Positions 8,658-26,364 of a DNA stretch of 64,000 bases are shown here, one piece after another. Both the position numbers and the translations under genes were made by a program. Below the pieces are notes generated by a model. That model searched no databases. It was given only the letters and a program-made list of their open reading frames with translations, and was not told the DNA's origin. Each line of letters starts with the position of its first letter. The first letter of the stretch is position 1. The DNA is from Longimicrobiales bacterium. Its GTDB lineage: Bacteria; Gemmatimonadota; Gemmatimonadetes; Longimicrobiales; RSA9. The DNA is taken from assembly GCA_036374995.1 (NCBI GenBank), contig DASUSS010000093.1, positions 45,945 through 109,944 on the forward strand, written 5' to 3'.

Positions 8658-8867
8658 TCACAGGATGATGGCGAGCGGCACGAGCACGGCATAGCCGAGC
8701 ACGAGCAGCAGCGGGGCACCGACCGTGGAGCCGCGCGCGAGCAGCATGTAGCCGGCGGTGATCGCGGCGAGTCCGAGCAGCAGCAGCACGCCGTTGATGG
8801 CGGAGAACTTGAGCGACGCGTGCGATTCCGCAGTCGCAGCGGCCCTTTTCCGGGTCCTGTTTCCCAT
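8658..8867 (-). CDS. small membrane protein with two predicted TM helices (69 aa)
   Basis: MGNRTRKRAAATAESHASLKF then two hydrophobic segments, INGVLLLLGLAAITAGYMLL and APLLLVLGYAVLVPLAIIL. Strong G/C third-position bias. Last gene of the array. Confidence 0.55.
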   Translation of the reverse strand: MGNRTRKRAAATAESHASLKFSAINGVLLLLGLAAITAGYMLLARGSTVGAPLLLVLGYAVLVPLAIIL

Positions 8868-8897
8868 GGCTGGAAGCTAACCCTATCGGGGTGATCG

Positions 8898-9869
8898 TCA
8901 AGCTGGACGGTCGGCGTCAGTGCCCGGTCCGGCTGTCTCGTCGGGCGGCGGCTCCAGCCAGTACGCCGGCTCGTCGGGCGGCTCCGCGGCGCGCAGCTGC
9001 TGCATCCGGCGCCGATCACGCCGGCGACGCATGACGAACAGCGCGAGCACGAGCAGCGCCGCGATTACCCAGATGAACATCGTCTGGGCGAGGATCTGGA
9101 GCCAGCCGAAGCGGCGCTTCACGTGCGCGCGCCAGAGCCGCTCGAACTGCGGCGAGGATACGACGTACACGCTCCGGAGGGATGCCTCGAAGTCGTCGGA
9201 CTCCGCCCACATCGCGAACAGCCGCTCGAGCGTTGCCGCACTGCCGAGCGAGTACAGGTACTGCACTGCGCTCGCGGACAGGAGGTACGCCAGCCGGGCG
9301 TCGACGGCGAGCAGGGGCCAGTCGAGCGTGAGCGAATCGAGCGGCGGCGCGCGCTCGGTGGCGAGCGCGAGGCGCAGCTGCCAGCCGGCGTTCGCGTCGA
9401 GCTGTCCGGCACTCCACGTCGCGTAGCCCTCCGTGAACCACCTCGGCACGAGCGCATCGCCGAGATGCCGCTGAAGCGCGACGTGGGCGAGCTCGTGACG
9501 CAGGATGTGGGGCAGCTCGTGCGTGCCGGCGCGCGACGAGACGTAGCCGGGCACGATGATCACACCGCGCTGCGGCAGCGCGACGCCGGCCCCCCACTCC
9601 GGGGCACGCCCTCCCGTCAGTGAATCGAAGCGCGCGGCATCGGGGGCGAGGTACACGTCGATGTCGCTGCCGCGTCGCAGGATGTCGGCCGGGAGGCCGG
9701 GAAAGGTCAGGCCGGCCGCCGACGTGAGCAGCGACGCTGCGAGCCGGTCCTGTCCGGGCCAGTAGTGGATGACCACGTCGTCGAGCCGCAGCGCCCCCTG
9801 CTGCGCGGTCGCACCGGCCGCCGGCAGCATGCCCGCCGCAACGAGCAGCGCGCCGCGCAACGATCTCAT
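8898..9869 (-). CDS. HExxH (peptidase MA-like) protein with signal peptide and C-terminal membrane anchor
   Basis: N-terminal MRSLRGALLVAAGMLPAAGATAQQ. HELAH motif within HILRHELAHVAL. C-terminal TM segment TMFIWVIAALLVLALFVM followed by RRRRDRRR. ATG forms an ATGA overlap with the cheB stop (9866-9869). Confidence 0.6.
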   Translation of the reverse strand: MRSLRGALLVAAGMLPAAGATAQQGALRLDDVVIHYWPGQDRLAASLLTSAAGLTFPGLPADILRRGSDIDVYLAPDAARFDSLTGGRAPEWGAGVALPQRGVIIVPGYVSSRAGTHELPHILRHELAHVALQRHLGDALVPRWFTEGYATWSAGQLDANAGWQLRLALATERAPPLDSLTLDWPLLAVDARLAYLLSASAVQYLYSLGSAATLERLFAMWAESDDFEASLRSVYVVSSPQFERLWRAHVKRRFGWLQILAQTMFIWVIAALLVLALFVMRRRRDRRRMQQLRAAEPPDEPAYWLEPPPDETAGPGTDADRPA

Positions 9870-10951
9870 TCCCGCCGGGTGCGCGCGCGCGCCGCAGTCA
9901 GGCGCGCGATCTCGTCGGCGACCTCACCGAGCGGCACTACGACCTCGGCGAAGGCGGCAGCGGCCCGGGGCATCCCGGTAATCACGGAGGTCTCCTCGTC
10001 CTGCGCGATCGTGCCCCCGCCAACCGCGCCAATGATGCGCAGCCCATCGGCGCCGTCACGCCCCATCCCGGTGAGCACGACGCCGACGCTCGCAGGACCG
10101 AACGTCCGTGCGATCGCTCGAAACAGCACGTCCGCTGCCGGCCTCACGTTCCACAGCAGCGGCGCCTCGGTGAGCAGGATCCGGACGCCGCCGGCGTCAC
10201 GCTGGAGGTCGAGGTGGAGGCCGCCGCGCGCGATGTAGATGACGCCCTCCTCCAGTACACTGCCCTGCTCGGCCTCGCGCACGGGCAGCGCGCACATCTG
10301 ATCGAGCCGCCGTGCGAACGCGCTCGTGAACAGCGCGGGCATGTGCTGCACGATGAACACGGCGGCAGGAAGGTCTTCGGGCAGCCGCGGCAGGATCTCC
10401 GCGAGCGCGCGCGGCCCGCCCGTCGATGCGGCAATCGCGACGGCGCAGCGCGCGGGCGGTGCACCCTCGTGGCGCCGCGCGCTCCGCTTCTGCCACAGCT
10501 GCCGGCGCCGCGGCAGGTTCAGCAGGTGCGCGACGGAGGCCGCACGCAGCGCCTGGTGCAGCCGCGTGCCGAACGCAGCCATCTCGGCAGACGAGGAGCC
10601 GTTCGGTTTCGCGACGAACTCGACCGCTCCGGCCTCCATGGCGCTCAGCGCGGAGTCGACGAGGGAGCGATCGTGCGCGGACACGATCACGACCGGTCGT
10701 GGCGCCTCGTGCAGCACGTAGTCGAGGGCCTCGCCACCGCCGAGATCCGGCATGGCCAGGTCGAGCGTGATGATGTCCGGATCCAGCTCGTGCACCATGC
10801 GGATCACCTCGTACCCGGTCGCCGCCTCGCCCACGACCTCGAAGTCTCCGCTGCCCGTGATGTGCTCGCGCAGCAGCGATCGCATCAGATCGCTGTCATC
10901 CGCGATCAGCACGCGGCGCGCACGGCGCGACTCAGAGGATGACATCGGCAT
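9866..10951 (-). CDS. cheB: protein-glutamate methylesterase/glutaminase CheB (receiver + esterase)
   Basis: Receiver domain RVLIADDSDLMRSLL...DIITLDLAMPD. Methylesterase half has AIAASTGGPRAL, FIVQHMP and LTGMGRDGA. Confidence 0.9.
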   Translation of the reverse strand: MPMSSSESRRARRVLIADDSDLMRSLLREHITGSGDFEVVGEAATGYEVIRMVHELDPDIITLDLAMPDLGGGEALDYVLHEAPRPVVIVSAHDRSLVDSALSAMEAGAVEFVAKPNGSSSAEMAAFGTRLHQALRAASVAHLLNLPRRRQLWQKRSARRHEGAPPARCAVAIAASTGGPRALAEILPRLPEDLPAAVFIVQHMPALFTSAFARRLDQMCALPVREAEQGSVLEEGVIYIARGGLHLDLQRDAGGVRILLTEAPLLWNVRPAADVLFRAIARTFGPASVGVVLTGMGRDGADGLRIIGAVGGGTIAQDEETSVITGMPRAAAAFAEVVVPLGEVADEIARLTAARARTRRE

Positions 10952-11471
10952 GGTTCACGGATGTGACGAGCAGCTGACCATCCATGGTACGCAGGAACAC
11001 GGAGCGGCCGTACGTGCCGAGCACGTCCTCGCCGTCGACCGGCACGCCCGCAGCGGCGAGCGCCTCCCGGGCCGCGTCCACGTTGCGGCGGCCGAGCTTC
11101 AATCCCTCGCGGTCGAGGATCGCGCGGAACATCGAGGCACCGCCGGCGAGCCGGCCACGCAGGCGGCTGCGCGACGCGCCGCGCGCCTCCATCAGCTCGA
11201 TCAGCTCGGGCACCGCCGTGCTGGCGAAGCGGCCGGGAGGTGCATCGCGCCGCCCACTGTCCGGATGCGGCAGCATGGCGTGCGCCAGGCCGCCGATCCG
11301 CTCGTACGCGTCGTACAGCGCGATGGCGACACACGACCCGAGGCCGACCGTATACAGCACGCTCGAGCCGGCCGCTGCCTTCACATCACCGATGTGGACG
11401 GGAACGTGCTCGGTCGCCTCGGCCCGAAACTCCAGCACCGAGCGGCGGGAGCTGCGCTGCTCCTCCATCAT
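10932..11471 (-). CDS. cheD: chemoreceptor glutamine deamidase CheD
   Basis: 179 aa with the CheD block TVGLGSCVAIALYD...GGLAHAMLP. The stop overlaps the cheB start by 20 nt. Confidence 0.9.
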   Translation of the reverse strand: MMEEQRSSRRSVLEFRAEATEHVPVHIGDVKAAAGSSVLYTVGLGSCVAIALYDAYERIGGLAHAMLPHPDSGRRDAPPGRFASTAVPELIELMEARGASRSRLRGRLAGGASMFRAILDREGLKLGRRNVDAAREALAAAGVPVDGEDVLGTYGRSVFLRTMDGQLLVTSVNHADVIL

Positions 11472-12373
11472 GCGCGGCGGAAGATGCGCTGGCGGCTCGC
11501 CATCGTCTGAAACAGGCCGGACTGCGCACCGAACAACGCCTCGACCTTGCCCAGCACGAGGTAGCCGCCCGGAACGAGCGCATCGTGGAACTGCCTGAAG
11601 AGCTGCTCCTGCACCGCGCGCTCGAAGTAGATGATGACGTTGCGGCAGAAGATGAGGTGCAGGTCGCGGGGGTGAGGTTCGCGGATCAGGTCGAGCGTCT
11701 CGAATCGCACGTTGCGCCGCGCCCCCGCCTTCAGTCGGTACACCCCATCGTGATCGAACCAGCGGTCCCGCAGCTCCGGCTCGATGTCCGTCATCGCGAA
11801 TTCCGTATACTCCGCACGTCGGGCGAACGCGAGACTCTCACGATCGATGTCGGTTCCCAGGATCTCGAACCGGTCCGGGTCCACACCGCGCTCCTGCGCG
11901 AACTCCTGTACCATGATCGCGGCCGAGTACGCCTCCTCGCCGCCCGCCGTGCCCGCACTCCAGATCCTGATCACCGGATCCTCGCGCGCCGCCAGCTCCG
12001 GCAGCACGTTGCGGGAGAGCATCTCCCAGACCTCGGGATTCCGGAAGAACTTGCTGACATTGATGGTGAGCGTATCGACGAGCTGCTCGTACTCCGCCCC
12101 GTCCGACGCGAGCAGCGCCGCGTACTGTGCGTAGCTGTGGACGCCACGCGCGCGCATCCGCACCGCAATACGCCGCCGCAGACACTTCTCCTTGTAGCCC
12201 TCGCAGAAGAACCCGACCGTCGCCTGGATCTGCTGCTTGAGAGCACGGAGCTCTGCGGCGTCGGCATCGCTCAGGTCACCGTGCGCGAGCGGGAGCGGCG
12301 GTACGCCGGACGGCTGTGCTTCACTGTGACTGCCTGCCGGGGCGGTCCGCTGCGACCGCTCATCCGGCGGCAT
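11468..12373 (-). CDS. cheR: chemotaxis protein methyltransferase CheR
   Basis: CheR blocks TINVSKFFRNPEVWE and IRIWSAGTAGGEEAYSAAI (SAM-binding). Start set at ATG 12373 (MPPDERS), because the longer ORF prefix overlaps the upstream gene in another frame. ATGA overlap with the cheD start. Confidence 0.85.
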   Translation of the reverse strand: MPPDERSQRTAPAGSHSEAQPSGVPPLPLAHGDLSDADAAELRALKQQIQATVGFFCEGYKEKCLRRRIAVRMRARGVHSYAQYAALLASDGAEYEQLVDTLTINVSKFFRNPEVWEMLSRNVLPELAAREDPVIRIWSAGTAGGEEAYSAAIMVQEFAQERGVDPDRFEILGTDIDRESLAFARRAEYTEFAMTDIEPELRDRWFDHDGVYRLKAGARRNVRFETLDLIREPHPRDLHLIFCRNVIIYFERAVQEQLFRQFHDALVPGGYLVLGKVEALFGAQSGLFQTMASRQRIFRRA

Positions 12374-13982
12374 TGACGACGATGTCGAGGTTGTTGCGGA
12401 CGATCGCGTTGTCCGGGTTGAGCTGGAGCGCGCGCTTCCAGGCCTCGACGGCCGCGTCGAGCGCGCGCGCCTTGTACTGGAGGTTGCCGATGCGGGCGAA
12501 CACGTCATCGCCCAGGCGCGGATCGAGCTCGGTCGCACGCAGGTAGTGCTTCAGCGCCTCGTCGTGAGCGGCCCGCCGATATGCGACATCTCCCAGGTTG
12601 CGGTGTGCCTGCGCGAGCGCGGGGTCCTCGTCGAGCGCCTGGCGATAGGAACGGTCCGCGTTGTCGAGGTCGCCGCGCCGCTCGCTGATCACACCCAGCA
12701 GCAGCAGCAGCGGCGCGGAGTCGCCGTAGATGTCGAGGCCCTGTGCGACGAGGGACTCCGCTTCGTTCAACTGGTCCATGGTGGCCAGGTTGAGCGCCGC
12801 GAAATAGAAGTAGTCGGCCGTCGGCCGGTCGCCGGGGCGGAGACGCGCGCGGAACTCATCGAACGCGGACCGCGCCTCCAGGTAGCGCGACGTGTGCAGC
12901 AGCGCGATGCCGCGCGCGAGCTCGGTGCGCGCGAGTCCCGGCTTCACGGCCTCCGCCTCGTCGAGCACGAGCAGCGCATCGGACGGACGGTCGAGCAGGC
13001 GTAGTGCGAGCGCCATGTTCATGAACGCGCCGTAATGCGCACCGCGCTCCTCCAGCAGGGTGCGCAGCTGCTTCACGGCATCGCGATACTGCTTCTCGCG
13101 CAGGCTGACGAGCGCGATGTGGTACCGGGCCGGAAAATCCTTCTCGTCGAGCTCCAGAACGCGCTCGAACTCCCGCGTGGCATCATCCATCATTCCGGTG
13201 CGGTAGAACGCGATGCCGAGGTTGCGGCGTTCCTGGAGCTCCGCTTCCCGGCCACGCACCGTCTCCTCCGCCTTCCGGCCGACGCGATGCGCGAAGCCCG
13301 CCTGGATCAACCCGAACAGTGCCTTGCCGACATCGAACTCGGCGAGCCGCGTCTGATCCGCCACCTCCTGCACGGTGCGGGTGCCATCGACCAGCGGGAT
13401 GATCTGCTGCTGCTCCGGCGTGAGCACCGCGTCGGAGCTGCGCACGCGGTCACGATCGATGTCGAACAGCAGATCCAGTGACGGAATCTTCTTCTCGATC
13501 ATGCTCCACTCGTCGACCCGGCGAGCGGCCTCGAGCAGCAGGCTCTCGGGATTGATGGTGACGACGAGATCGGCCTCATCGGGCGTGGCGTCCGGCTCGA
13601 AGAAGAAGTTGCCGCGCGACCACGTGAACAGGTGGTAGATCGCCTCTTCGATCTGGAGCCGGATGTAGTGCTTCAGCTCCGACTTCGTGATGTAGTTGTA
13701 GGAGACGAGCAGCTCACCGACGCGGCGGTCGGGCTCGCGCGCCTGGTGCTCGAGCACCTTCTCCAGCTGCCGCTGCGCGAGCACGCCTTCGCGCACGAGG
13801 ATGTCGCCCAGCCGGTCGCGGCGGTTGACGATGCGCGCGTACGTGATGCGGCCCTTGTCGAAGTAGATCTGGCCGAAGCGCGATCCGTCGGCGACCGAGA
13901 GGCAGCCGGACTTGAGGCCGAGCGCGAGGAGCTGGCAGACGTCGGCGAGGCTGGCTTCCTTGAGGCTGCCCTTGATGGCCAT
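12360..13982 (-). CDS. PATAN (DUF4388) domain + TPR repeat protein (540 aa)
   Basis: The N-terminus MAIKGSLKEASLADVCQLLALGLKSGCLSVADGSRFGQIYFDKGRITYA fits the DUF4388/PATAN pattern. The C-terminal half carries repeated TPR-like helices (YRTGMMDDATREFERVLELD..., AQAHRNLGDVAYR..., LGDDVFARIGNLQYK...). Confidence 0.75.
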   Translation of the reverse strand: MAIKGSLKEASLADVCQLLALGLKSGCLSVADGSRFGQIYFDKGRITYARIVNRRDRLGDILVREGVLAQRQLEKVLEHQAREPDRRVGELLVSYNYITKSELKHYIRLQIEEAIYHLFTWSRGNFFFEPDATPDEADLVVTINPESLLLEAARRVDEWSMIEKKIPSLDLLFDIDRDRVRSSDAVLTPEQQQIIPLVDGTRTVQEVADQTRLAEFDVGKALFGLIQAGFAHRVGRKAEETVRGREAELQERRNLGIAFYRTGMMDDATREFERVLELDEKDFPARYHIALVSLREKQYRDAVKQLRTLLEERGAHYGAFMNMALALRLLDRPSDALLVLDEAEAVKPGLARTELARGIALLHTSRYLEARSAFDEFRARLRPGDRPTADYFYFAALNLATMDQLNEAESLVAQGLDIYGDSAPLLLLLGVISERRGDLDNADRSYRQALDEDPALAQAHRNLGDVAYRRAAHDEALKHYLRATELDPRLGDDVFARIGNLQYKARALDAAVEAWKRALQLNPDNAIVRNNLDIVVNAAG

Positions 13983-13983
13983 G

Positions 13984-15738
13984 CTACTCCATCTCCTGGA
14001 TCACGCTGTCCTGGATGTAGGGCCATTGCCAGAGCAGCTTCTCGCGATTCAGGAACCAGTCATCGACCTGGAGTGCCGGCATCGCCGGCGCGGAGTCCGT
14101 CGCGGCGTCCAGCTCGGCACCCAGCCTCGCGTCCTGCGCCGATGGCGTGAGGTCCACAACCAGGCCGCTCTCGAGCCGTGTGCGGAGCCGGTCCTCGAAG
14201 CCGTGCAGCTCGCGTGGCGGCCGAGCAGCCGTGAACACGAGCTGCACGCCCGACCGGCGCGCGCTGTCGAAGAAATGGAACAGCTCCTCCTGCGCGCGCT
14301 CCGTCTGCTCGAGCGCATCGATGCCGTCGATGATGAGGAGGCGCGCGCGGCGGTAGCGCGCGCGCCAGCTGTCGACCTGGTTCCGCTTGAGCGCACCGAT
14401 CAGCTCGGCGGCGAAGTCTTCGCCGGTGAGGAACGCAATGCCGCCATCGCGATCGCGCTCGCGGAACAGCAGCGCGAGCGCTGTGACGAGCGCGGTCCTG
14501 CCCGCGCCGTCCGGCGCGTGCACGAACAGCGGGTTGTAGCGGTCGCCTGGCTGCTGCGCCACGGCGCGCGCCGCGCGCACGGCGAGCAGGTCGCGGTCGA
14601 GCGCCAGCTGCTCGAAGCGCGGCTCCTCCGGCGGCGGAGGCAGCGGGCGCATACGCTCGCGCACCTGCTCCAGAATCGACTCCGCCTCCTCCAGCCGATC
14701 CGGATTGCGCAGCACGTCGAGTCGCGCCAGCTCGGCCGCCGCGGGGTCCAGCTCCCGGATCTTCGCGGCGATCTCCCGCAGCCGTGTGACCGTCTCCTCG
14801 TACCGGCTCAGCAGCGCTTCGGCGTCCTCGTCCGTGAGGTCGTCCTTCAGCGCCGCCTCGAGCTGCCACGTCCGGTAGCCCTCGGCCTCCCAGCGGAGCA
14901 CCGCGTCGCCGACCTTCTGCGCCGGCGTGACCCCCGCCACCGCGCGGCCGAGCGTGCCCGCGACCTCGCTCATGAACGAGCCGAATTCGTCGGAACCACG
15001 CGGCTCTTCCGCTCGACCGAGCAGCTCCGGCACCTCCTCCGCGCTGACCGGCCGCCGATCGAGCTCCTGCACGGCGATCACGCGATTGAGCGCGCCCTGA
15101 AGCTCGCGCACGTTGCCGAATCCGATCTTCGCCAGCGCCTCCGCCACGCCCGTCGACAGCAGATGTCCCCGCTCCTCCGCCTTCTGCCGCACGATCGCCA
15201 CGCGCGTCTCGTAGTCCGGCACGCTCAGGTCCGCCATCAGCCCGCCCGAGAAGCGGGAGAGCAGGCGCTGATCGAGCCCGTCGATCTCGGAGGGCGGACG
15301 ATCACTCGCGAGCACGACCTGCCCGCCCCGGGCCATCAGCGCATCCCACGACCGCAGCAGCTCCTCCTGCGCACCGCGCCGGCCGGCGAGGAACTGGACG
15401 TCATCGAGGAGCAGAACGGACGCGCCGCGCAGCCGCGCGCGGAATGCATCACGCTCGCCCGCCTGGATCGCCTCCATCACGCCTTCCATCAGATGCTCGA
15501 GCGTGTCGTAGAGGACCTCGATGTTCTGATGGACGCGGCGGACGTGATTGCCGATCGCCATGATCAGGTGCGTCTTGCCGAGGCCGGACTCGCTGTAGAG
15601 GAACAGCGGGTTGTACGCCGAGCCGGGCGACTCCGCGACGCGCTTCGCGGCCGCTGCGGCCAGGCGGTTCGACGTGCCGACGATGTAGCTGTCGAACGTG
15701 TTCCGCGGGTCCAGACCGGGCGAGAGATCCTGCTTCAT
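13984..15738 (-). CDS. tandem DnaA-like AAA+ protein (intact module + degenerate module, no DNA-binding domain)
   Basis: Residues 10-225 carry YNPLFLYSESGLGKTH (Walker A), VLLLDDVQF (Walker B), LASDRPP, RLLSRFSGG and NVRELQGALNRV, as in DnaA domain III. Residues 376-530 repeat the core as YNPLFVHAPDGAGRTA, LLIIDGID, FTAARPP and RLRTRLESG. No domain I/II or IV. Confidence 0.75.
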   Translation of the reverse strand: MKQDLSPGLDPRNTFDSYIVGTSNRLAAAAAKRVAESPGSAYNPLFLYSESGLGKTHLIMAIGNHVRRVHQNIEVLYDTLEHLMEGVMEAIQAGERDAFRARLRGASVLLLDDVQFLAGRRGAQEELLRSWDALMARGGQVVLASDRPPSEIDGLDQRLLSRFSGGLMADLSVPDYETRVAIVRQKAEERGHLLSTGVAEALAKIGFGNVRELQGALNRVIAVQELDRRPVSAEEVPELLGRAEEPRGSDEFGSFMSEVAGTLGRAVAGVTPAQKVGDAVLRWEAEGYRTWQLEAALKDDLTDEDAEALLSRYEETVTRLREIAAKIRELDPAAAELARLDVLRNPDRLEEAESILEQVRERMRPLPPPPEEPRFEQLALDRDLLAVRAARAVAQQPGDRYNPLFVHAPDGAGRTALVTALALLFRERDRDGGIAFLTGEDFAAELIGALKRNQVDSWRARYRRARLLIIDGIDALEQTERAQEELFHFFDSARRSGVQLVFTAARPPRELHGFEDRLRTRLESGLVVDLTPSAQDARLGAELDAATDSAPAMPALQVDDWFLNREKLLWQWPYIQDSVIQEME

Positions 15739-16357: not shown

Positions 16358-16849
16358 CTAGTCCTCGCTTGCTGCGTCCGGCGACGTATACTCCAGCCCG
16401 GCTTCGAGGTCGTGCTCGAAGCTCGTCTGGTCCCTGTGCTCCCGCTGCTCCTGGAACTCCGGGAGCGCCGATACTTCCCGCTCGAGGTTCTCGTAGAACA
16501 GCCGGACGATGCCGAGCGACGAGTCGGCATCGAAGATGACCACGAGAATCAGCTCCTCGATCGGCGTTCGCAGCGGCGCGAGGAACAGCTGCCGTTCGCG
16601 GCCGCCATGATACAGGTGCTCCCACCGCTCCGCGCCCGCGAGCTGCGCGAGTGCATTGGAGGAAGCATGCGTGGCTGCTGCGAGCGACGCGATGTTGCGG
16701 ATCTGGTACGCCCGCGTGAACCCGTGCTGCGCGAGCACCTGTCCGGCGTGGCTGACGAGCAGCGCGATGCGGACGCGCGATTCGCGCACGAAACGCTGGA
16801 TCGGGTCCCGCAGGACGTCGATCAGCCGCGGGAGCTCGGCTCCTCTCAT
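16358..16849 (-). CDS. mglB: Roadblock/LC7 protein MglB (MglA GAP)
   Basis: Roadblock fold with LILVVIFDADSSLGIVRLFYENL, matching the MglB block LVVIFDNRTSLGLVRL. Acidic C-terminal tail. The stop abuts the mglA start with a 0-nt gap. Confidence 0.8.
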   Translation of the reverse strand: MRGAELPRLIDVLRDPIQRFVRESRVRIALLVSHAGQVLAQHGFTRAYQIRNIASLAAATHASSNALAQLAGAERWEHLYHGGRERQLFLAPLRTPIEELILVVIFDADSSLGIVRLFYENLEREVSALPEFQEQREHRDQTSFEHDLEAGLEYTSPDAASED

Positions 16850-19377: not shown

Positions 19378-22032
19378 TCAGCGCTCCGGTCCGAGTGCCG
19401 CGAGGGCCGCCGCGGCCCGCTCGTGTCGCGGCTGGAGTCGCAGCACGCGCTGGTACGCCTGGCGCGCGTCGTCGGTGCGGCCGTCCTTCACGAGCAGCTC
19501 GGCCAGCCGGACGAGCGCCTCCATCGCGTACGGATCCATGGTCAGCAGATCGATCATGACGTGCACGGCCTCGCGCACGCGGCCCCGTCGCTCCAGGAGG
19601 TCCGCCAGGCCCGTCGCCGCCTCGCCGTAGCTCGGAAGCACCCGCAACGCCGCACGATATTCCGACTCCGCCTCCTGCACGCGCCCGTCCTGCGCGAGCA
19701 CACGAGCGAGCGCGGTGCGCGCTGCCACCGCCATGGTGTCGCTCGCAACGGCGCGACGGAGCGTAGTCTCCGCACCATCCGCGTTCCCCGCGGCCGCGTA
19801 TGCCGACCCCAGCTCGGTGAGCAGGTGCGAGTCATCGGGCGCGGCCAGGCGGGCCTGCTCGAGCACGAGCGCGGCGCGCGCATAGTCGTGAACGCGGGCC
19901 AGCGCGCCGCCGAGCGTGCGCAGCGCCTCGACGTCGTTCGGCGAAAGCTCGCACAGCCGCTCCGCGGCTTCGACCGCTTCCGTCATGCGGCCGAGATCCA
20001 TGAGGGACCGCGCGGCACCGTGCAGCGCGGTTCGGAGCGACTGATCCTCCTCGCCGACCTCGCTGCGCGCGATCTCCGCCAGCGCGTCGTTGAACCGGTC
20101 CACCGCTTCGCCGGACAGCCCACGCCGCAGGAAGACCTCGCCCTGGAGCAGCAGCACATCGATGCGCGGCGCACCCATCATCGCGGCCCGCTGCGCTTCG
20201 GCACTCGCCTGCTCCAGCATGCCGCGATCCATCGACTGCCGTGCGGCGTCCAGCAGGTCGCGGCCGGGTGCCTCGGCCTCGGGCCGTGCCTGCGGCCGGG
20301 CCGACTCGATGAACACCTCATCCAGCACGCCCGGCTGGAAATGGAACGCATCGATCACCTCACCGCCTGCAACCCGCGCGGCGGGATCCAGCTCGGGCGC
20401 CAGCACGCTCGCTTCCTCGAACTGCAGATCGATCAGCAGCCGGAACCGCGGCGTGGGAATGTAGGGGTTGAGGTCCAGCGCATGCTTCGTCTCGTTCAGC
20501 GCGCCGGCATAGTCACCGAGCGCCGACATCGCGAACGCGAGGTGATAACGGGCCTCGGCCAGCGATGGATCCAGCTCGACCGCGCGGAGCAGATGGACCC
20601 GCGCCTGCTCCGCGTGACCCATCTCAAGCAGCAGAATCCCGTATCCGGTCAACGCCTGCGCGGCGGACGGGTTCGCCTCGATCGCGCTCTGGTACGCCCG
20701 CAGACTCTCCTCCCGGCGCCCCTCGCGGTGCAGCATGAGCGCGAAGTTGCGCCACAGATCGCCGAGCGCACGGCCTTCCCTGACTGCCGCCTGGAACGCC
20801 GGTTCCGCATCCGGCGCACCGCGATGGTGCCGCACGATCGCGAGGTTGTTCCAGGCCAGTGCGTAGTTCGGATCGATCTCGAGCGACCGGTAGTACGCCC
20901 CCTCGGCTTCCTCCAGGTCGCCCATCTGGTGCCGGACCACGCCGAGCTCGTTCCACAGCTTCGGACTGGCCGGCTCCTGCTGGATGAGCGATGCGTACAG
21001 CTCGAGCGCCTCCTCGCCCTGTCCTCGCAGCAGCAGCATCTCCGCCTGCGCCTGCTGCACCAGATACGTGTCCTCGCCGCGCTCGGTCGCGAGCCGGAAC
21101 TCGCGCAGCGCCTCGTCGTACAGCGCCTTCTGCCGGAACGCCAGGCCGAGGTTGTAGTGTGCCAGCTCGCCGCCCGCAGCCACGCGCGGCGAGCCCGTCC
21201 CGCGCTCGCCGACCAGCTCCTCGTAGCGCGCCGTGCTGTAGCTGTCGAGCGACAGCCCCGCCTCGGCCTTCGCGTAGCTCGGGTTCAGCTGAGCCGCGCG
21301 GTTCGCCGTCTCCGTCGCGCGCTCCGTGTCGCCGAGATCGCCGTAGACGAAGGCGAGCAGATGGTGCGCGTCGGCCAGACCGGGGTCGAGCTGAATCGCG
21401 CGCTCCAGCGGCTCGCGCGCGTCGCCGCTCAGCCCGCGCTGGTACTGCACCTCCCCGATCATGAAATGGACCCGTGCACTGGTTCCGTCCAGCGCTTCCG
21501 CGCTGCGCAGTGCGGCGAGCGCCGCCTCCAGGTCGCCCTTCTTCAGCTCCGCCCGCGCGAGTCGCTGGTACACGGCCGCATCGTTGGGGCGGACCGCCAG
21601 CAGCTCGTGCAACTCGCGCACGGCCGCATCGGCGTCCCCGCTGTTGAAGTAGGCCCGCGCCAGCTGGTCGCGCGCCTCCGCGTCCAGCGGGTCCGCCTCC
21701 AGCCGCTGCCGCAGCTGCGAGCTCAGCCGCTCGAAGTGACCGGTGCCGAAGTAGGCGATCTGGAGATTTCGCTCGGCGACCTGCATCCGCGGATCGATCT
21801 CCAGCGCGCGCTCGAACTGGTCGACCGCATCCTGGTACAACCCCTTGTTGTAGAAGACCACGCCGAGGTTGTTGTGCGCACCCGCATCCTGCGGATTGAT
21901 GCGACGGGCGAGCGCACGCAGGATCTCGAGGTCGCGCTCGGAGCGCGGCGAGGTGCCGGGCGGATGCCGGCCGCCCTCACCTCGATCCGTCCAGGGCATC
22001 GACGCAGGAACACGGGTCGGCTGTGTGCTCAT
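19378..22032 (-). CDS. large TPR repeat protein (884 aa)
   Basis: TPR consensus units run throughout (AHNNLGVVFYNKGLYQDAVDQFERALEIDP, ALAWNNLAIVRHHRG..., and others). No other domain seen. Its ATG overlaps the cheC stop by 1 nt. Confidence 0.8.
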   Translation of the reverse strand: MSTQPTRVPASMPWTDRGEGGRHPPGTSPRSERDLEILRALARRINPQDAGAHNNLGVVFYNKGLYQDAVDQFERALEIDPRMQVAERNLQIAYFGTGHFERLSSQLRQRLEADPLDAEARDQLARAYFNSGDADAAVRELHELLAVRPNDAAVYQRLARAELKKGDLEAALAALRSAEALDGTSARVHFMIGEVQYQRGLSGDAREPLERAIQLDPGLADAHHLLAFVYGDLGDTERATETANRAAQLNPSYAKAEAGLSLDSYSTARYEELVGERGTGSPRVAAGGELAHYNLGLAFRQKALYDEALREFRLATERGEDTYLVQQAQAEMLLLRGQGEEALELYASLIQQEPASPKLWNELGVVRHQMGDLEEAEGAYYRSLEIDPNYALAWNNLAIVRHHRGAPDAEPAFQAAVREGRALGDLWRNFALMLHREGRREESLRAYQSAIEANPSAAQALTGYGILLLEMGHAEQARVHLLRAVELDPSLAEARYHLAFAMSALGDYAGALNETKHALDLNPYIPTPRFRLLIDLQFEEASVLAPELDPAARVAGGEVIDAFHFQPGVLDEVFIESARPQARPEAEAPGRDLLDAARQSMDRGMLEQASAEAQRAAMMGAPRIDVLLLQGEVFLRRGLSGEAVDRFNDALAEIARSEVGEEDQSLRTALHGAARSLMDLGRMTEAVEAAERLCELSPNDVEALRTLGGALARVHDYARAALVLEQARLAAPDDSHLLTELGSAYAAAGNADGAETTLRRAVASDTMAVAARTALARVLAQDGRVQEAESEYRAALRVLPSYGEAATGLADLLERRGRVREAVHVMIDLLTMDPYAMEALVRLAELLVKDGRTDDARQAYQRVLRLQPRHERAAAALAALGPER

Positions 22033-22646
22033 CAGGCCAGCTTCATCATACGCAGCATGATCTGGAGCGACGCCGCATCGGGGATCAGCAGGAAATGGCC
22101 GCGGATGTGCTCCTCACCCATGCTCATTCCGGTGTTCACGCACAGCACGTAGTCGTGGGCCTCGCCGAAGTTGAGATAGCTCGTGGTCATGACCGCGCCG
22201 ACCATGTCGATCGCTATCGCCGGAACCGACATGATCAGCAGCAGCCCCATGAAGTCCGACAGCGCATTCAGGTAGGCACCCACGATGATGTTGCCGATCT
22301 CCTTGAGCGTATTCTGATGCTCGTCCGTGAACTCGTCCGGGAACACGGGCTCGCGGTCACCGGTCAGGATGCTGATGAGCTTCACCGCCGAGGCGCCCGG
22401 GAAGATCTGGAGTGTCCGGCCGGTGACATCGCCGAGCACCTTCATCATCACCGCGGCCACGACATCGTCGGGCGCGCCCGTCACGCTGCCGACGTCCTCG
22501 AGGCGTATGATGCTGACCTCGGGCACATCGATCATGATGACGCGATCGGTCATCTGCGACAGCGCCGTGGCCGCGTGGCCGGCGCCGATGTTCGCGATTT
22601 CGCGCATTGCGTCGAGTTGCGACGCGTCGAGCGTGCGTAGATCCAT
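22032..22646 (-). CDS. cheC: CheY-P phosphatase CheC
   Basis: 204 aa with both CheC active-site motifs, DAMREIANIGAGHAATAL...VP and NTLKEIGNIIVGAYLNAL...VP. Confidence 0.85.
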   Translation of the reverse strand: MDLRTLDASQLDAMREIANIGAGHAATALSQMTDRVIMIDVPEVSIIRLEDVGSVTGAPDDVVAAVMMKVLGDVTGRTLQIFPGASAVKLISILTGDREPVFPDEFTDEHQNTLKEIGNIIVGAYLNALSDFMGLLLIMSVPAIAIDMVGAVMTTSYLNFGEAHDYVLCVNTGMSMGEEHIRGHFLLIPDAASLQIMLRMMKLA

Positions 22647-22654: not shown

Positions 22655-24442
22655 TCATATCACGCTGAGCGGGTCGAGCACCAGAGCCGGCCGCCCGTCG
22701 GCGAGCAGGGTCGCCCCCGAGAAGAAGGGGAGCATTCCCGTCACACCGTCGAACGTCCGCACGAGGATCTGTTCGCGACCGACGAGCTCGTCGACGGCGA
22801 GCGCGGCGCGGCGATCACCGATCTCGGCGATCACGGCCGCGTTCTCGGTCCCGTCGGCCTCCACGCGCAGCACGCGCCGCAGGCGGACGAGCGGCACGGC
22901 ATGGTTGCGGACGTGCAGGACGCGCGCGCCGTTCATGGCAGCGCCATCCAGCTCGACGGCCTCCGTGACGTGCGTCAGCGGGATCGCGTAATCCTCTCCG
23001 CCGACGCGCACGCGCAGCGCCTGTGCGACGGCGAGCGTGATCGGCAGACGCAGGGTGAACGAAGTACCGGCGCCCGGCTTCGTGCGCATGTCGATCGCAC
23101 CGCCCAGAGCCCGCACGCGGTTCACCACGACATCCACGCCCACGCCACGGCCGGACACCGTGCTGACCTCGTCGGCCGTCGACAGACCCGGTGTGCTCAT
23201 GAGCCGGAACAGGTCCTCGTCCGTCGCCGGCGGCTCGTCCTCAGCATACAGCCCGGCCGCCCGTGCCTTCTCGGCGACGCGCTCCGCGGAAACGCCGCGG
23301 CCGTCATCGTCCACGACGATACGCACGCTGCCCCGCTCACGCTCGGCGCGCACGCGGATCCTGCCGCGCGGCCGCTTGCCCGCCGCACGCCGGTCCGCGG
23401 CACCCTCGATCCCGTGATCGACCGCATTGCGCAGCAGGTGTACGAGCGGCTCGCCGATCTCGTCGAGGATGGCGCGGTCCAGCTCGACGTCTTCGCCCTC
23501 GAGCACCAGCTCCACTTCGCGCCCCACGGCACGGGCCGCATCGCGCACCACACGCGGCAGGCGGGCGAACACCTCGCGCACCGGTACCATGCGCAGGGCG
23601 CGCATGTCGTGCTCCAGCTCGCCGAGCACTGCACCGACACGATCGATCATCTCGCTCACCTGCGTCGGGAGCGGCGCCTGTTGCAGGCGCGCGTAGAGCA
23701 CCGACAGCTCGCCCAGCCCATCGGCCAGGCCGTCCAGCCGCTGCACATCCACGCGCACCTGACGGGCGTGCCGTGCCGCCGCTGCGCCGTTGCCGGGCGC
23801 GCCGACCCGCCGCAGCTCCACCGTGTCCACGTCACCCGCGCCGCGGATTGCCGACTCGACTGCCGTCTGATCCGCGCTGCTGTCGAGAAAGATGACGAAC
23901 GCACCGTCGAACTCATCGTCGAAGGCGGCGGGATCGGAGCCGAGCATGCCCGGCAGGCTCTCCAGCGCGCGGAGGATGAGGGCGGCGCGGGCGCCCTTGA
24001 TCGGCGCATCGGCGCGGAGCCGGACGTGTGCGAGCGTCGTGGTACCTTCCGGAGCCCGGTGGGCACTGCCGGACTGCGCGGGCCGCTCTGCGGATTCGGG
24101 GGTCGGGCCGTGCGGTCCGGACGGCGTCGTGAGCACCGCACCGCTGATCGCGTCCTCGAGCTCATCGGCGCCGGCGAGGAGGGCATCGATGACCTCGGCC
24201 TCGGCCCGGAGTGTGCCCGCACGGATCGCGTCGAGACGGTCCTCCAGCCGGTGCGCGAGATCGGCAACCGCGTCATAGCCCATCGCGGCCGAGATACCCT
24301 TCAGCGTATGCGCCGCGCGGAACGCCTCCGCCACGGTATCACTGCCCGCGCCCGCTTCCAGCTCGATCAGGCTGCGCTGCAGCAGCCGGATGTGCTCCTG
24401 CGTCTCCGAGACGTAGAGGTCGACGAATTTGCGGAGATCCAT
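22655..24442 (-). CDS. cheA: chemotaxis histidine kinase CheA
   Basis: Hpt P1 with phospho-His box AAHTLKGISAAMG. Kinase core HLLRNAVDHGIE, DDGRGV and GRGVGVDVV. C-terminal CheW-like domain (EDYAIPLTHVTE...). Start at ATG 24442 (MDLRKFVDLY), 5 nt after the cheY stop. Confidence 0.9.
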   Translation of the reverse strand: MDLRKFVDLYVSETQEHIRLLQRSLIELEAGAGSDTVAEAFRAAHTLKGISAAMGYDAVADLAHRLEDRLDAIRAGTLRAEAEVIDALLAGADELEDAISGAVLTTPSGPHGPTPESAERPAQSGSAHRAPEGTTTLAHVRLRADAPIKGARAALILRALESLPGMLGSDPAAFDDEFDGAFVIFLDSSADQTAVESAIRGAGDVDTVELRRVGAPGNGAAAARHARQVRVDVQRLDGLADGLGELSVLYARLQQAPLPTQVSEMIDRVGAVLGELEHDMRALRMVPVREVFARLPRVVRDAARAVGREVELVLEGEDVELDRAILDEIGEPLVHLLRNAVDHGIEGAADRRAAGKRPRGRIRVRAERERGSVRIVVDDDGRGVSAERVAEKARAAGLYAEDEPPATDEDLFRLMSTPGLSTADEVSTVSGRGVGVDVVVNRVRALGGAIDMRTKPGAGTSFTLRLPITLAVAQALRVRVGGEDYAIPLTHVTEAVELDGAAMNGARVLHVRNHAVPLVRLRRVLRVEADGTENAAVIAEIGDRRAALAVDELVGREQILVRTFDGVTGMLPFFSGATLLADGRPALVLDPLSVI

Positions 24443-24447: not shown

Positions 24448-24810
24448 CTAGCCGAGGACGCGCTGCACCGCCTCCAGCACGCGGGATGGCTGGAACGGCT
24501 TTACGACGAAATCGCGTGCGCCCGCCTGGATCGCTTCGATCACCAGCGCCTGCTGACCCATCGCGCTGCACATGAGGATGCGCGCCTGCGGATGTTCCTT
24601 GACGATCGCGCGCACGGCATCGATACCACCCATGTCCGGCATGACGATGTCCATCGTGACGAGGTCCGGCTGCAGCTGCTTGTACAGCTTCACCGCTTCC
24701 GCTCCCGTCTGCGCTTCTCCGACGACCTCGAAGCCCGCGCCCTTGAGGATGTCCGCGAGCATGCTGCGCATGAAGAGCGCATCGTCACAGATCAGGACCG
24801 TTCTCGCCAT
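24448..24810 (-). CDS. cheY: response regulator CheY
   Basis: 120-aa single receiver: VLICDDALFMR, VTMDIVMPDMGG, MCSAMG and VVKPF. Confidence 0.9.
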   Translation of the reverse strand: MARTVLICDDALFMRSMLADILKGAGFEVVGEAQTGAEAVKLYKQLQPDLVTMDIVMPDMGGIDAVRAIVKEHPQARILMCSAMGQQALVIEAIQAGARDFVVKPFQPSRVLEAVQRVLG

Positions 24811-24839
24811 GGGGTGTTGTCCTCGCCAGTAGTTTCCGC

Positions 24840-25289
24840 TCAGCCGGGCAGCAGTCGACCCAGCAGCGACTGCGGATCCAGAGCCGTGAAGGCCGTGTCG
24901 GCCAAATGCCCCGTTCCCAACACGCCCGGCGTACTGCCCGCCCGATCGATGCGTGCCGGCGCGATATCGACGACATCTTCAACGACAGCGCCCACGAGGC
25001 GCGCTCCCAGTTCGAGAAGCAGCAGACGGTGGTCGGGGAGAGATGCGGCACTGCGCAGACCCAGCACGGCGCCGAGATCGAAGACCGTGATCACGCGACC
25101 GCGCACGCCGACGAGGCCGCACACCTCGCGGCCGGCGCCGGGCAGCCGGGTGAACGGCCGCGGCGTTATGATCTCACTGACACCGTCCAGCGGAACTCCG
25201 TACCGTCTGTCCTCGCACGAGAACACCACCCACGGCAGAACTGCGGGCGCGTGCGTTCCGGCTTCGGCGACGACGGCGGTCTTCGACAC
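24840..25289 (-). CDS. cheW: coupling protein CheW (start uncertain)
   Basis: CheW fold: WVVFSCEDRRYGVPLDGVSEIITP...VCGLVGVRGRVITVFDLGAVLG. ORF track 24840..25469 runs into rluD. An in-frame GTG at 25289 gives about 150 aa, and TTG at 25394 is an alternative. Confidence 0.75.
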   Translation of the reverse strand: MSKTAVVAEAGTHAPAVLPWVVFSCEDRRYGVPLDGVSEIITPRPFTRLPGAGREVCGLVGVRGRVITVFDLGAVLGLRSAASLPDHRLLLLELGARLVGAVVEDVVDIAPARIDRAGSTPGVLGTGHLADTAFTALDPQSLLGRLLPG

Positions 25290-25383
25290 AGATTCCCGCT
25301 GGGATGCGACGTCGCGCGCTGATTCCGCGGCGTCCTTACCACTCGGTTGGGCGACTGAAGATACTGCCCGGCCGCTCCCTCGG

Positions 25384-26364
25384 TCAACCGCCAAGTGTCG
25401 TAGATTCCGCCCATTCCGCAGCTTGAGCCAGGTCCGGCGGGAGCGGCGAATCGAAGCGCAGCTCCTCATCGGTGCGGGGGTGGCGGAAGCGGAGCCGGGC
25501 AGCGTGGAGGAACTGGCGCGGCACCCGTTTCGCCAGCTCGGCCGCCCAGCGACGATCCGGCCCGCTCATGCCGCGCTCCGCATGCGCGCCGTAGGTCCGG
25601 TCGCCGACCACCGGATGTCCGATGTGCGCCAGATGGACGCGGATCTGGTGCGTGCGTCCTGTCTCCAGCTCGGCCTGGATCAGATCGGCGGCGCGCCAGC
25701 GGGCGACGCGGCGGAGCCGGGTGCGCGCACTGCGGCCCTCCGGCACGACGCCCATGCGCTTGCGGTCGGTGCGTGCGCGGCCGATCGGCGCCTCCACGAC
25801 GAGCGTGTCCTGAGCCAGGTGGCCCCACGCGGCCGCGAGATAGATGCGGCGCACCTCGCGGCGCTTGAGGGCGGTCGACAGCCGGCGGTGCGCGAGGTCG
25901 TGCTTGGCCACGATGAGCAGGCCCGACGTATCGCGGTCCAGCCGGTGCACGATGCCGGGCCGGAGCACACCGCCGATGCCCGACAGGTCGCGCACGTGGT
26001 GCAGCAGCGCATTCACCAGCGTGCCGGAAGCGTGTCCCGGTGCGGGATGCACGACGAGCCCTGCCGGCTTGTCGATCACGATCAGGTCCTCGTCCTCGTA
26101 AACGATGTTCAGCGGAATGGGCTCGGCCGCGATCGTGCTCGGAACGGCCGGGGGCAGGTCGAGGTCGATCACGTCGCCGGCCGCCACGCGCTGACTCTTG
26201 CGGGCGGGCGTTCCGTTGACGAGGACGCGCCCCTGCTCGAGCAGCTGTGCGGCCCGCGAGCGCGACAGATCGGGGTGATGGGTGGCCAGATATGCGTCGA
26301 TCCGGACGTGGTCCGCGTCCGCGACGACGAGCCGCTGCCGCTCCGCATCAGGGACGTCGCTCAA
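25384..26364 (-). CDS. rluD: RluA-family 23S rRNA pseudouridine synthase RluD
   Basis: N-terminal S4-like region (RIDAYLA...SRSRAAQLLEQGRVLVNG) and catalytic HRLDRDTSGLLIVAK. The start codon is TTG at 26364. Confidence 0.9.
   Translation of the reverse strand: MSDVPDAERQRLVVADADHVRIDAYLATHHPDLSRSRAAQLLEQGRVLVNGTPARKSQRVAAGDVIDLDLPPAVPSTIAAEPIPLNIVYEDEDLIVIDKPAGLVVHPAPGHASGTLVNALLHHVRDLSGIGGVLRPGIVHRLDRDTSGLLIVAKHDLAHRRLSTALKRREVRRIYLAAAWGHLAQDTLVVEAPIGRARTDRKRMGVVPEGRSARTRLRRVARWRAADLIQAELETGRTHQIRVHLAHIGHPVVGDRTYGAHAERGMSGPDRRWAAELAKRVPRQFLHAARLRFRHPRTDEELRFDSPLPPDLAQAAEWAESTTLGG

Follow-up and report, generated by a model that had tools for sequence, protein, structure and literature searches.

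We analysed a 64,000-nt stretch of DNA (the window; G+C ~69%) from a Longimicrobiales bacterium of the phylum Gemmatimonadota (GenBank assembly GCA_036374995.1, contig DASUSS010000093.1, positions 45,945 to 109,944 of the forward strand), in which 17 consecutive minus-strand genes at 8658-25394 combine chemosensory (Che) genes, the small GTPase MglA and its partner MglB, PATAN and Roadblock proteins, and a tandem DnaA-like ATPase that we call DnaA2. A sequence-only reading of this DNA had listed these genes and proposed that they form a single unit; every open reading frame (ORF) was found where it had been placed, and the domain content agrees with Pfam assignments. In the direction of transcription the order is cheW, cheY, cheA, cheC, a gene for an 884-aa tetratricopeptide repeat (TPR) protein (TPR884), PATAN1, TPR-Roadblock, Roadblock, mglB, mglA, DnaA2, PATAN2, cheR, cheD, cheB, a gene for an HExxH protein and a gene for a small protein with two transmembrane (TM) helices; coordinates below are window positions on the minus strand unless otherwise indicated. 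The junctions are as tight as first described, with ATGA stop/start overlaps at 9866-9869, 11468-11471, 16846-16849 and 17190-17193, a 1-nt overlap at 22032 (cheC/TPR884), a 20-nt overlap between cheD and cheB, and a 30-nt gap between the HExxH and 2-TM genes. The remaining junctions range from a 14-nt overlap (PATAN2/cheR) to a 29-nt gap (cheW to cheY), and mglB and mglA are separated by 0 nt. Internal promoters or terminators, which the sequence-only reading had named as evidence against a single unit, did not emerge above chance: a crude consensus scan for sigma-70 promoters and intrinsic terminators returned one site of each kind within the array, and the single promoter-like site, against 0.7 expected, is possibly a chance match. 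As judged from its sequence, the array appears to be an operon-like, tightly packed unit.

DnaA2 (13984-15738; 584 aa) is a tandem of DnaA-domain-III AAA+ modules. It matches Pfam Bac_DnaA twice (E = 2e-91) and neither Bac_DnaA_C nor DnaA_N, and thus lacks DnaA domains I, II and IV. An AlphaFold2 model (pLDDT 84.7) resolves an AAA+ module, a helical linker domain, a second AAA+ core and a short tail. Module 1, which includes a lid (residues 9-240; 15019-15714), superposes on domain III of Bacillus subtilis DnaA (8bv3) with a TM-score of 0.93, a root-mean-square deviation of 1.7 Å and 43% identity in Foldseek, and resembles DnaA (E = 4e-54) far more than Hda. It carries the features that define DnaA domain III, namely Walker A and B, sensors I and II and the box VII arginines; across 178 sequences, the Walker A lysine K55 and Walker B residues D112/D113 are invariant (178/178) and R162 and R211, at sensor/box VII positions, are nearly so. 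By its motifs, module 1 appears catalytically intact. A confidently modelled helical domain (residues ~270-365) joins it to module 2 (residues 385-530; 14149-14586), a degenerate core without a lid. At the Walker A lysine position of module 2, lysine occurs in 142 of the 178 sequences and arginine in 27, the window protein among the latter; the second acidic residue of Walker B is lost in about half, and sensor I is not conserved. The box VII arginines of this module are kept (R517 in 177/178, R521 in 176/178). Beyond a variable acidic linker, the protein ends in a conserved WFLNREKxLWxWPY segment (residues ~560-575; 13984-14060) with invariant W572 and P573, which is a candidate docking peptide.

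Two familiar identities were considered for DnaA2 and rejected. Because it has neither the domain IV helix-turn-helix nor domain I, we ruled out a replication initiator, even though the protein scores 404 bits with the NCBIfam DnaA equivalog TIGR00362 (cutoff 344), on domain III alone. A typical Hda was likewise ruled out by the presence of two modules, by a score with the Hda model TIGR03420 of 138 bits (cutoff 195), and by the absence, on inspection of the alignment, of a clamp-binding Q-L-x-L-[FL] motif at the N-terminus, which reads xxSLxLDPRFTFD. In a fold search with the whole model, the only matches were DnaA, Hda and generic double-ring AAA+ proteins, and the helical middle domain had none.

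Immediately downstream of DnaA2 lies PATAN2 (12360-13982), and upstream of the mgl genes PATAN1 (18247-19374); both encode a PATAN domain (DUF4388, PF14332; E = 1.5e-37 and 1.4e-27, respectively) together with TPRs. The sequence-only reading had recognised these proteins correctly as PATAN-TPR proteins, and had missed that both contain a tandem motif of the MshEN type, the cyclic di-GMP (c-di-GMP) binding element of MshE. This element consists of two tandem 24-residue motifs, RLGxx(L/V/I)(L/V/I)xxG(L/V/I)(L/V/I)xxxxLxxxLxxQ (Wang et al. 2016, PMC5013675). With the corresponding NCBIfam model NF053729 (curated cutoff 38 bits), PATAN1 scores 42.7 bits (residues 59-112; 19039-19200) and PATAN2 44.1 bits (13653-13814), both above the cutoff. 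Each of the two PATAN2 motifs (residues 57-80 and 87-110) fits RLGxxhhxxGhhxxxxLxxxLxxQ, and among 63 orthologues the R, L, G and Q positions reach 80-90% conservation or more; the PATAN1 motifs lie at residues 59-82 and 89-112, the second having A in place of G. Both proteins are therefore candidate c-di-GMP receptors. Neither matches Response_reg, so they are not of the PatA type, in which PATAN is followed by a C-terminal receiver.

The GTPase switch genes lie between the two PATAN genes. MglA (15749-16357) aligns over residues 1-196 with Myxococcus xanthus MglA (5ymx, E = 5e-76) and with Thermus MglA (3t12, E = 3e-70), the next-best small GTPases lying at E ~1e-6, and it keeps the MglA signature: a GPGRSGKT P-loop, TETDRTLFFDF with the intrinsic arginine, PGQV and NKRD. 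With full-length similarity, this catalytic signature and an adjoining cognate mglB, it has the attributes of Group 1 of the MglA family as defined by Wuichet and Sogaard-Andersen (2015; PMC4316618). The mglB product (16358-16849) matches M. xanthus MglB (6h5b_B, E = 8e-11) as well as Thermus MglB chains. Their sequences mark MglA and MglB as probable bona fide switch proteins, with MglB a candidate Roadblock-fold GTPase-activating protein (GAP). Two further Roadblock/LC7 genes precede mglB. One encodes a 115-aa single-domain protein (16846-17193; Pfam Robl_LC7) that is not of the MglB type, its closest solved chains being the generic Roadblock proteins 7f8m and 7yh1, with MglB chains much weaker; the other encodes a TPR protein (17190-18245; Pfam TPR families) with Robl_LC7 at residues 235-321. 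TPR884 (19378-22032) matches multiple TPR families, has no signal peptide and is a candidate cytoplasmic scaffold.

The Che genes form two blocks, one on either side of the Mgl and DnaA2 genes, an arrangement that argues against chance juxtaposition. The upstream block comprises cheW (24840-25394; Pfam CheW, E = 2e-22), cheY, a single-domain receiver (24448-24810; Response_reg, E = 6e-31), cheA (22655-24442; Pfam), with an Hpt-P2-dimerisation-HATPase-CheW layout and no receiver, and cheC (22032-22646; Pfam CheC and CheX), a predicted CheY-P phosphatase of the CheC/CheX family. The downstream block comprises cheR (11468-12373, ATG 12373 being taken as the start; CheR and CheR_N), cheD (10932-11471; CheD) and cheB (9866-10951; receiver and methylesterase, Response_reg and CheB_methylest). 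CheY has its closest match in Thermotoga maritima CheY (1tmy), at E = 6e-48 and ~65% identity, counted on the alignment. Among NCBIfam models, CheA is matched best by CheA_Halo (397 bits vs 284 for the E. coli type, both below the equivalog cutoffs), CheC by CheC_Thtogales (below its cutoff) and CheD by CheD_Thtga. CheC and CheD accompany CheA, CheW, CheY, CheR and CheB, which is the auxiliary-protein complement of the F1 class. The set therefore resembles F1, in a Thermotoga-like form, by proxy models rather than class-specific hidden Markov models; this was the second feature that the sequence-only reading had missed. The F1 chemosensory class is reportedly that of Wuichet and Zhulin (2010). 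In bacteria, it is classically flagellar.

The array closes with two genes for envelope proteins. The HExxH protein (8898-9869; Pfam Peptidase_MA_2) has a signal peptide, a periplasmic domain, a C-terminal TM helix and a basic cytoplasmic tail, and is followed by the 69-aa 2-TM protein (8658-8867), recognised from its sequence. As initially described, the array ends at a tRNA-Val(TAC) (8577-8653; ARAGORN) and an 11-bp G+C hairpin (8538-8568), which lies 3′ of the tRNA, folds at about -30 kcal/mol including its flanks and has no U tract. At the other end, the co-directional run continues beyond cheW through rluD (25384-26364; Pfam PseudoU_synth_2 and S4), lspA and ileS on the same strand. The cheW start is uncertain among TTG 25394, GTG 25289 and GTG 25229, and alignment of orthologous ORFs did not settle it; the rluD stop (25384-25386) overlaps the TTG taken as the start, so that rluD abuts or overlaps cheW. 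The upstream transcript boundary is accordingly uncertain. A weak sigma-70-like hexamer pair spans the rluD/cheW junction (25358-25387; TTGACC-18-TATCTT, 9/12 matches), and a short untranslated stretch before cheW may hold this site.

We then compared this arrangement across genomes, scanning one genome per species with the DnaA2 alignment and assigning neighbours by tblastn and iterated profile searches. The scan yielded 68 loci with the tandem protein, 66 of them labelled Gemmatimonadota; the others carry the labels Acidimicrobiia (L043), which is probably a binning error, and 'uncultured bacterium' (L066). It also returned 12 canonical dnaA loci of other phyla, all devoid of array neighbours. 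No DnaA2 tandem protein was found outside the phylum, every named member, distant representatives included, being from Gemmatimonadota; the closest relatives are in Longimicrobiales metagenome-assembled genomes (MAGs), at up to 92% identity. The neighbourhood, whose absence in relatives would have spoken against a single unit in the sequence-only reading, is kept in order across Longimicrobiales, Gemmatimonadales and Gemmatimonas. The usual succession is rluD, cheW-Y-A-C, large TPR, PATAN, TPR-Roadblock, Roadblock, mglB, mglA, DnaA2, PATAN2, cheR-D-B, HExxH, 2-TM and tRNA-Val, and relatives share it with DnaA2 proteins that are only 34-58% identical. Persistence of gene order at this divergence places the arrangement far beyond chance.

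Individual components are retained at similarly high frequency. Where the upstream side is complete (n = 37), cheWYAC is present in 34 loci, the large TPR gene with a PATAN gene in 35, the Roadblock genes and mglB in 31-32, and rluD upstream in 33; where the downstream side is complete (n = 46), the HExxH and 2-TM genes are each present in 45, minimal variants included. The whole gene set occurs in 23 of 31 fully covered loci, and tRNA-Val follows the cluster in 23 of the 26 loci checked, making it a conserved downstream boundary. Junctions of at most 30 nt join mglA to DnaA2 in 56/56 loci, DnaA2 to PATAN2, which directly follows it, in 60/62, and TPR884 to PATAN1 in 40/40. We read the cluster as vertically inherited in Gemmatimonadota. 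A lineage-specific elaboration is found in Gemmatimonadales, in which an extra ~2-3 kb between cheB and the HExxH gene encodes two CheW proteins and a 290-aa cytoplasmic coiled-coil/TPR protein (e.g. L013:15991-17752), giving most of these loci three CheW proteins per cluster vs one in the window. In two loci (L018, L037), every cluster gene is split into several ORF fragments, which looks like assembly frameshifts and not pseudogenisation. Given the conserved order, the tight junctions and the lack of above-chance internal sites, a functional link between the Che, MglA/MglB, PATAN/Roadblock and DnaA2 proteins is well supported.

The variants of the cluster are, unexpectedly, nested and identify its invariant part as DnaA2, PATAN2, the HExxH protein and the 2-TM protein. 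These four genes remain without MglA and Che in L014, L030, L034, L052 and probably L040, representing 4-5 lineages from both orders, in the succession rluD, DnaA2, PATAN2, HExxH, NtrC-type regulator, 2-TM. The regulator gene, for a sigma-54 response regulator between the HExxH and 2-TM genes, was located at L014:8989-10383 and L034:10064-11488. A further locus (L006) combines the core with the whole Mgl layer and no Che gene, and five others (L042, L046, L047, L049, L054) add cheWYAC to core and Mgl layer and lack cheRDB. In Gemmatimonas-like loci (L032, L036, L041), the cluster has no mglB, no cheR and neither of the extra Roadblock genes. Che genes without mglA were not found at any of the 68 loci. 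From these few variants, the nesting suggests a dependency order in which Che depends on Mgl and Mgl on the core. The sequence-only reading had placed Che and MglA at the centre of the system, and this view must be revised: the hub is the pair of DnaA2 and PATAN2 with its envelope proteins, which outlasts both.

Nor did the description of the array as a self-contained system hold, as neither a receptor nor a motility machine is encoded in the cluster or the rest of the window. That a receptor is missing had been noted correctly, and it is true of every window ORF scanned and of all 68 related loci. Within the clusters there was no unassigned ORF of receptor size; the sole unassigned ORF of at least 150 aa in the 66 clusters checked is a 262-aa ORF between the HExxH and 2-TM genes of one locus (L002:18544-19332). 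The insert between cheB and the HExxH gene in Gemmatimonadales was considered as a receptor location and ruled out, since it encodes the CheW and TPR proteins described above and no methyl-accepting chemotaxis protein (MCP). Searches by tblastn with PilB, PilT, PilC and PilD found no pilus genes in the window or the Gemmatimonadota loci, and a Pfam scan of the other window ORFs found no flagellar genes in the window, the remainder being housekeeping.

An exhaustive profile search extended these observations to other phyla by recovering long proteins in which MshEN is fused to DnaA-like ATPase modules. Such fusions are rare, forming six clusters. A single fusion gene lies directly upstream of pilB-pilT in a Hydrogenedentota locus (L084; 5469-13256) and an Abyssubacteria-like locus (L085; 10001-16019), and several lie inside pilus loci in L081 (1738-17238) and L082 (3436-25923), the order in the latter being pilD, the fusion genes and pilB-pilT-pilC-pilS-pilR. 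The pilus-linked fusions come from Hydrogenedentota, an Abyssubacteria-like organism and an organism of 63% G+C, and some are 1876-1990 aa long, their two modules lying ~1250 aa of coiled coil apart. In a fifth locus (L083; 33-35% GC; 7068-12366), genes for an AAA_22 protein, a Roadblock protein, an MglA 49% identical to that of the window, a PATAN protein, an MshEN-DnaA-like fusion and a second PATAN protein stand in a row without Che genes, forming a compact counterpart to the core seen in Gemmatimonadota. A shared, dedicated origin of DnaA2 and the fusions was considered and is unsupported, as the fusions are closer to Firmicutes DnaA than to DnaA2. We therefore treat them as parallel functional evidence and not as orthologues: a DnaA-domain-III ATPase paired with MshEN or PATAN recurs beside mglA or pilus motor genes. 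No published description of MshEN-DnaA-like genes at pilus loci was found. Two further non-canonical types of DnaA-domain-III protein came up among the representatives. One has a DnaA-domain-III module followed by DUF835 (P0254, P0256, P0261, P0266, P0267); the other, of 1084-1420 aa, has 7-9 stretches that match the profile (P0197, P0209, P0221, P0238, P0249), and a Pfam scan of P0197 gave one Bac_DnaA and C-terminal zinc ribbons.

Among characterised systems, the array is closest in logic to the Frz and MglA/MglB network of M. xanthus (with RomR/RomX and MglC), which likewise joins a Che-type pathway to a Group 1 MglA and a Roadblock-fold GAP MglB and includes an extra Roadblock paralogue and TPR effectors. 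In M. xanthus, the frz genes and mglBA occupy separate loci (PMC4316618), as the sequence-only reading had stated, whereas here the Che and Mgl genes are interleaved. The hallmarks of the Frz type are also absent: CheA has no receiver of the FrzE kind, and there is no FrzZ-like double-receiver protein and no FrzCD-like receptor or other MCP in the cluster or the 68 loci; no RomR-like gene was seen. In their place stand an F1-like Che set with CheC and CheD, and a DnaA-like ATPase and two PATAN-TPR proteins as integral parts. The cyanobacterial Tax/Pix pathways, which control type IV pili by way of PATAN-REC (PatA-type) response regulators, are similar in that a chemosensory pathway is encoded with PATAN proteins that serve as its output to PilB1 and PilC, and the helical insertion of PATAN resembles the N-terminus of pilus and type II secretion system ATPases. 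The array, however, joins PATAN to TPRs in place of a receiver and has CheY as a single-domain protein of its own; it includes MglA/MglB and the DnaA-like ATPase and has no photoreceptor or MCP gene. In function, the array is like the Frz-MglA/MglB and the cyanobacterial Tax/PATAN circuits, and it is a member of neither.

Its parts can be compared in the same way. MshE, PilB and GspE share with the array the tandem 24-residue motifs and the coupling of a c-di-GMP sensor to an ATPase; in the array, the motif is inside PATAN on a separate polypeptide, with a 6-residue spacer in place of 5, and the ATPase derives from DnaA instead of being a PilB/GspE hexamer. The MshEN-DnaA-like proteins (L081, L082, L083, L084, L085) likewise bring together an MshEN-type motif and a DnaA-domain-III ATPase, and in L083 have MglB-like, MglA and two PATAN neighbours; they differ in that MshEN is fused to the ATPase, the AAA+ module is single or lies ~1250 aa of coiled coil from its partner, and Che genes are lacking. 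Hda, which acts on DnaA in the regulatory inactivation of DnaA (RIDA), is also a DnaA-clade AAA+ protein with box VII arginines and no domain IV, and the degenerate module of DnaA2 could donate an arginine finger as Hda does; unlike Hda, DnaA2 has two modules, the helical domain and the WFLNREKxLWxWPY tail, lacks the clamp motif and is encoded with signalling and polarity partners. Finally, the F1 systems of Thermotoga, Bacillus and archaea have the same set of CheA, W, Y, C, D, R and B but not its division into two blocks around polarity genes, and the array has no adjacent MCP or flagellar gene.

Earlier literature contains a trace of the arrangement. PATAN genes have been reported as neighbours of mglA and mglB, in agreement with what the sequence-only reading had stated about PATAN companions. 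According to Wuichet and Sogaard-Andersen, the signalling partners of mglA are encoded away from it in Myxococcus and Bdellovibrio, and they mention no more than an occasional PATAN neighbour (PMC4316618). Table S2 of Wuichet and Sogaard-Andersen gives the Gemmatimonas aurantiaca neighbourhood of GAU_1409 as 'PATAN>MglA>-PATAN>', the dash denoting an unnamed intervening gene that, from where it lies, should be the DnaA-like one; GAU_1115 is entered separately as an MglB>MglA pair. Full-text literature searches, whose coverage was incomplete, found no account of this composition beyond the supplementary GAU_1409 entry, consistent with the initial impression that it had not been described.

We propose, with moderate confidence, that the array is a controller built in layers, which governs cell polarity and surface motility, most likely by type IV pili, and integrates chemosensory phosphorylation, GTP, c-di-GMP and ATP. 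Its first layer would be the core of DnaA2, PATAN2, the periplasmic HExxH protein with its single C-terminal TM anchor and the 2-TM protein; its second, MglA and its GAP MglB with the two further Roadblock proteins, the TPR scaffolds and PATAN1; and its third, CheW/Y/A/C upstream and CheR/D/B downstream, fed by receptors encoded elsewhere. Signals from these receptors would reach CheA, and CheY-P, reset by CheC, would bias the MglA-GTP/MglB polarity axis. MglA-GTP and the c-di-GMP-loaded PATAN proteins would then influence, by way of the TPR and Roadblock scaffolds, DnaA2, which would serve as an ATP-dependent switch or oligomer, its module 1 site being completed by an arginine of module 2 or of a neighbouring protomer. 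The pathway would end at an envelope machine of the cell pole, for which the type IV pilus motor is the likeliest candidate. We infer the protein-protein steps, the ligand binding, co-transcription and the identity of the output.

Evidence by association favours pili over flagella as this target, despite the F1-like Che proteins. In Synechocystis, a PATAN domain binds PilB1 and PilC and sets pilus polarity (10.1101/2021.06.11.447907), and pilus and type II secretion ATPases have MshEN as their N-domain (PMC5013675). In Myxococcus, it is MglA that sorts the pilus ATPases, and the MshEN-DnaA-like fusions adjoin pilB. In a survey that covered more than 400 MAGs of Gemmatimonadota, flagellar genes were reported from only one or two soil genomes, and type IV pilus genes from genomes of all environments except marine (PMC10581226). 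It is because of these precedents, the fusions and the survey that pili are favoured. Many of our full-cluster loci come from MAGs named SMAG. We take this name to mean soil MAG.

More tentatively, and with somewhat less confidence than in the layered controller itself, we suggest that a copy of DnaA domain III has been recruited away from replication as a nucleotide switch in the control of polarity and type IV pili. Together with MshEN/PATAN c-di-GMP sensors, it may constitute a previously unrecognised signalling module that recurs in Gemmatimonadota, Hydrogenedentota, Abyssubacteria-like organisms and a low-GC lineage, and that in Gemmatimonadota would be the hub for the MglA switch and the F1-like Che pathway.

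Several observations weigh against these proposals. The cluster, the window and the 68 loci contain no pilus, flagellar or receptor gene, so that the output is assigned by association only, and the Che proteins resemble a class that classically serves flagella. The rluD and tRNA-Val flanks are as syntenic as the cluster genes, and part of the conservation may reflect a stable chromosomal region; because these housekeeping flanks are equally conserved, synteny alone overstates functional unity. The wiring is not uniform, as the Gemmatimonas-type variants (L032, L036, L041) show. With respect to ligand binding, the inter-motif spacer is 6 residues long and not 5 as in published MshEN, and the PATAN1 motifs are only moderately conserved among orthologues. 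The inter-domain geometry of the DnaA2 model is unreliable (pTM 0.49). Finally, the AAA+ modules of the fusions are 55-60% identical to Firmicutes DnaA vs ~39% to DnaA2, so that parallel recruitment is possible.

The most direct alternative is that the array is a syntenic block and not one system: a general F1 chemotaxis pathway (acting on flagella where present), a separate Mgl polarity module, and DnaA2, PATAN2 and the HExxH protein in some other role would share a stable region and perhaps a read-through transcript. We regard this as unlikely. The conserved positions of ileS-lspA-rluD and tRNA-Val, the classical F1 appearance of the Che proteins without a CheA-receiver fusion, the lack of a receptor in the cluster and the separate loss of layers are all what such a block would display. 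Against this, the losses are nested and not independent, with Che never present without MglA, and the two Che blocks bracket the Mgl and DnaA2 genes with coding overlaps at both borders (1 nt at cheC/TPR884, 14 nt at PATAN2/cheR). Flagellar genes are moreover reported to be nearly absent from soil Gemmatimonadota (PMC10581226), where the full cluster is common, and the association of MglA, PATAN and a DnaA-like ATPase recurs in the unrelated low-GC organism (L083).

A different role for DnaA2 itself would be that of an Hda-like regulator of replication or the cell cycle, acting on DnaA as a cap, co-oligomer or arginine-finger donor, with the cluster coupling polarity and environmental sensing to initiation, for instance in the asymmetric or budding division that has been reported for Gemmatimonas. 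The DnaA likeness of module 1 would suit this role: its identity to and close superposition on B. subtilis domain III, the invariant ATP-binding and near-invariant sensor and box VII residues, the TIGR00362 score above cutoff, and basic or hydrophobic residues kept at positions of the single-stranded-DNA-binding motifs (GRRGAQ, M88; from the alignment). Yet a protein without domains I, II and IV has no means of binding DnaA boxes and no DnaB-loading surface, inspection of the alignment found no QL[SD]LF-type clamp-binding motif at its N-terminus, its conserved partners are PATAN, MglA, Roadblock and Che proteins and not dnaN, hda or oriC-type genes, and MshEN-fused DnaA-like ATPases adjoin pilB-pilT in three lineages; we consider replication control very unlikely. 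Equally improbable in our view is that the core serves another envelope process, such as polysaccharide or adhesin export, type II secretion-like transport, gliding or periplasmic proteolytic signalling, with c-di-GMP as its main input and Mgl and Che as optional modifiers. Survival of the core without MglA and Che, always with the HExxH and 2-TM proteins, and the NtrC-type regulator gene between these two in minimal variants would fit such a process, and MshEN-type motifs regulate glycosyltransferases and type II secretion ATPases too (PMC5013675). The experimentally supported precedents for PATAN and MglA, however, all point to type IV pili, the fusions outside Gemmatimonadota lie beside pilB-pilT and not beside export genes, and no export or glycosyltransferase gene is present in the cluster.

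If the layered controller is real, a single locus integrates four signal currencies: phosphorylation, GTP, c-di-GMP and ATP. How Che pathways are coupled to MglA is a long-standing question that is under study in Myxococcus, whose genome holds the parts at scattered sites; here the parts list lies in one conserved locus, with the PATAN-TPR, TPR-Roadblock, Roadblock and large TPR proteins as candidate Che-Mgl connectors, together with an unexpected ATPase, and nested variants suggest the order in which the layers depend on one another. The locus suggests that an ATPase derived from DnaA may work outside replication and that PATAN proteins may be c-di-GMP receptors. To find such an ATPase at the centre of a polarity locus would surprise specialists, and it is this component that may define a new module. 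Gemmatimonadota are abundant in soils, and their cell biology is almost unstudied; a cultured host is at hand in Gemmatimonas aurantiaca T-27, which carries the cluster around GAU_1409.

Elsewhere in the window, the ileS ORF upstream of the array (26902-30648, minus strand) is 1248 aa long, and its synthetase domain begins at residue 212, so that the first start codon is probably far upstream of the true one; in the mechanical ORF list, the start of the lspA ORF overlaps the ileS end by 70 nt. A CdaA-type diadenylate cyclase (34443-35732, minus strand; DAC and CdaA_N) adjoins exbB-exbD-exbD-tonB and ftsH, and is a c-di-AMP synthase that is probably unrelated to the array. On the plus strand, two large RND (AcrB-type) ORFs at 48767-55098 overlap by ~780 nt in different frames of the stop-to-stop list, and are probably two adjacent genes, the start of the second being over-extended.

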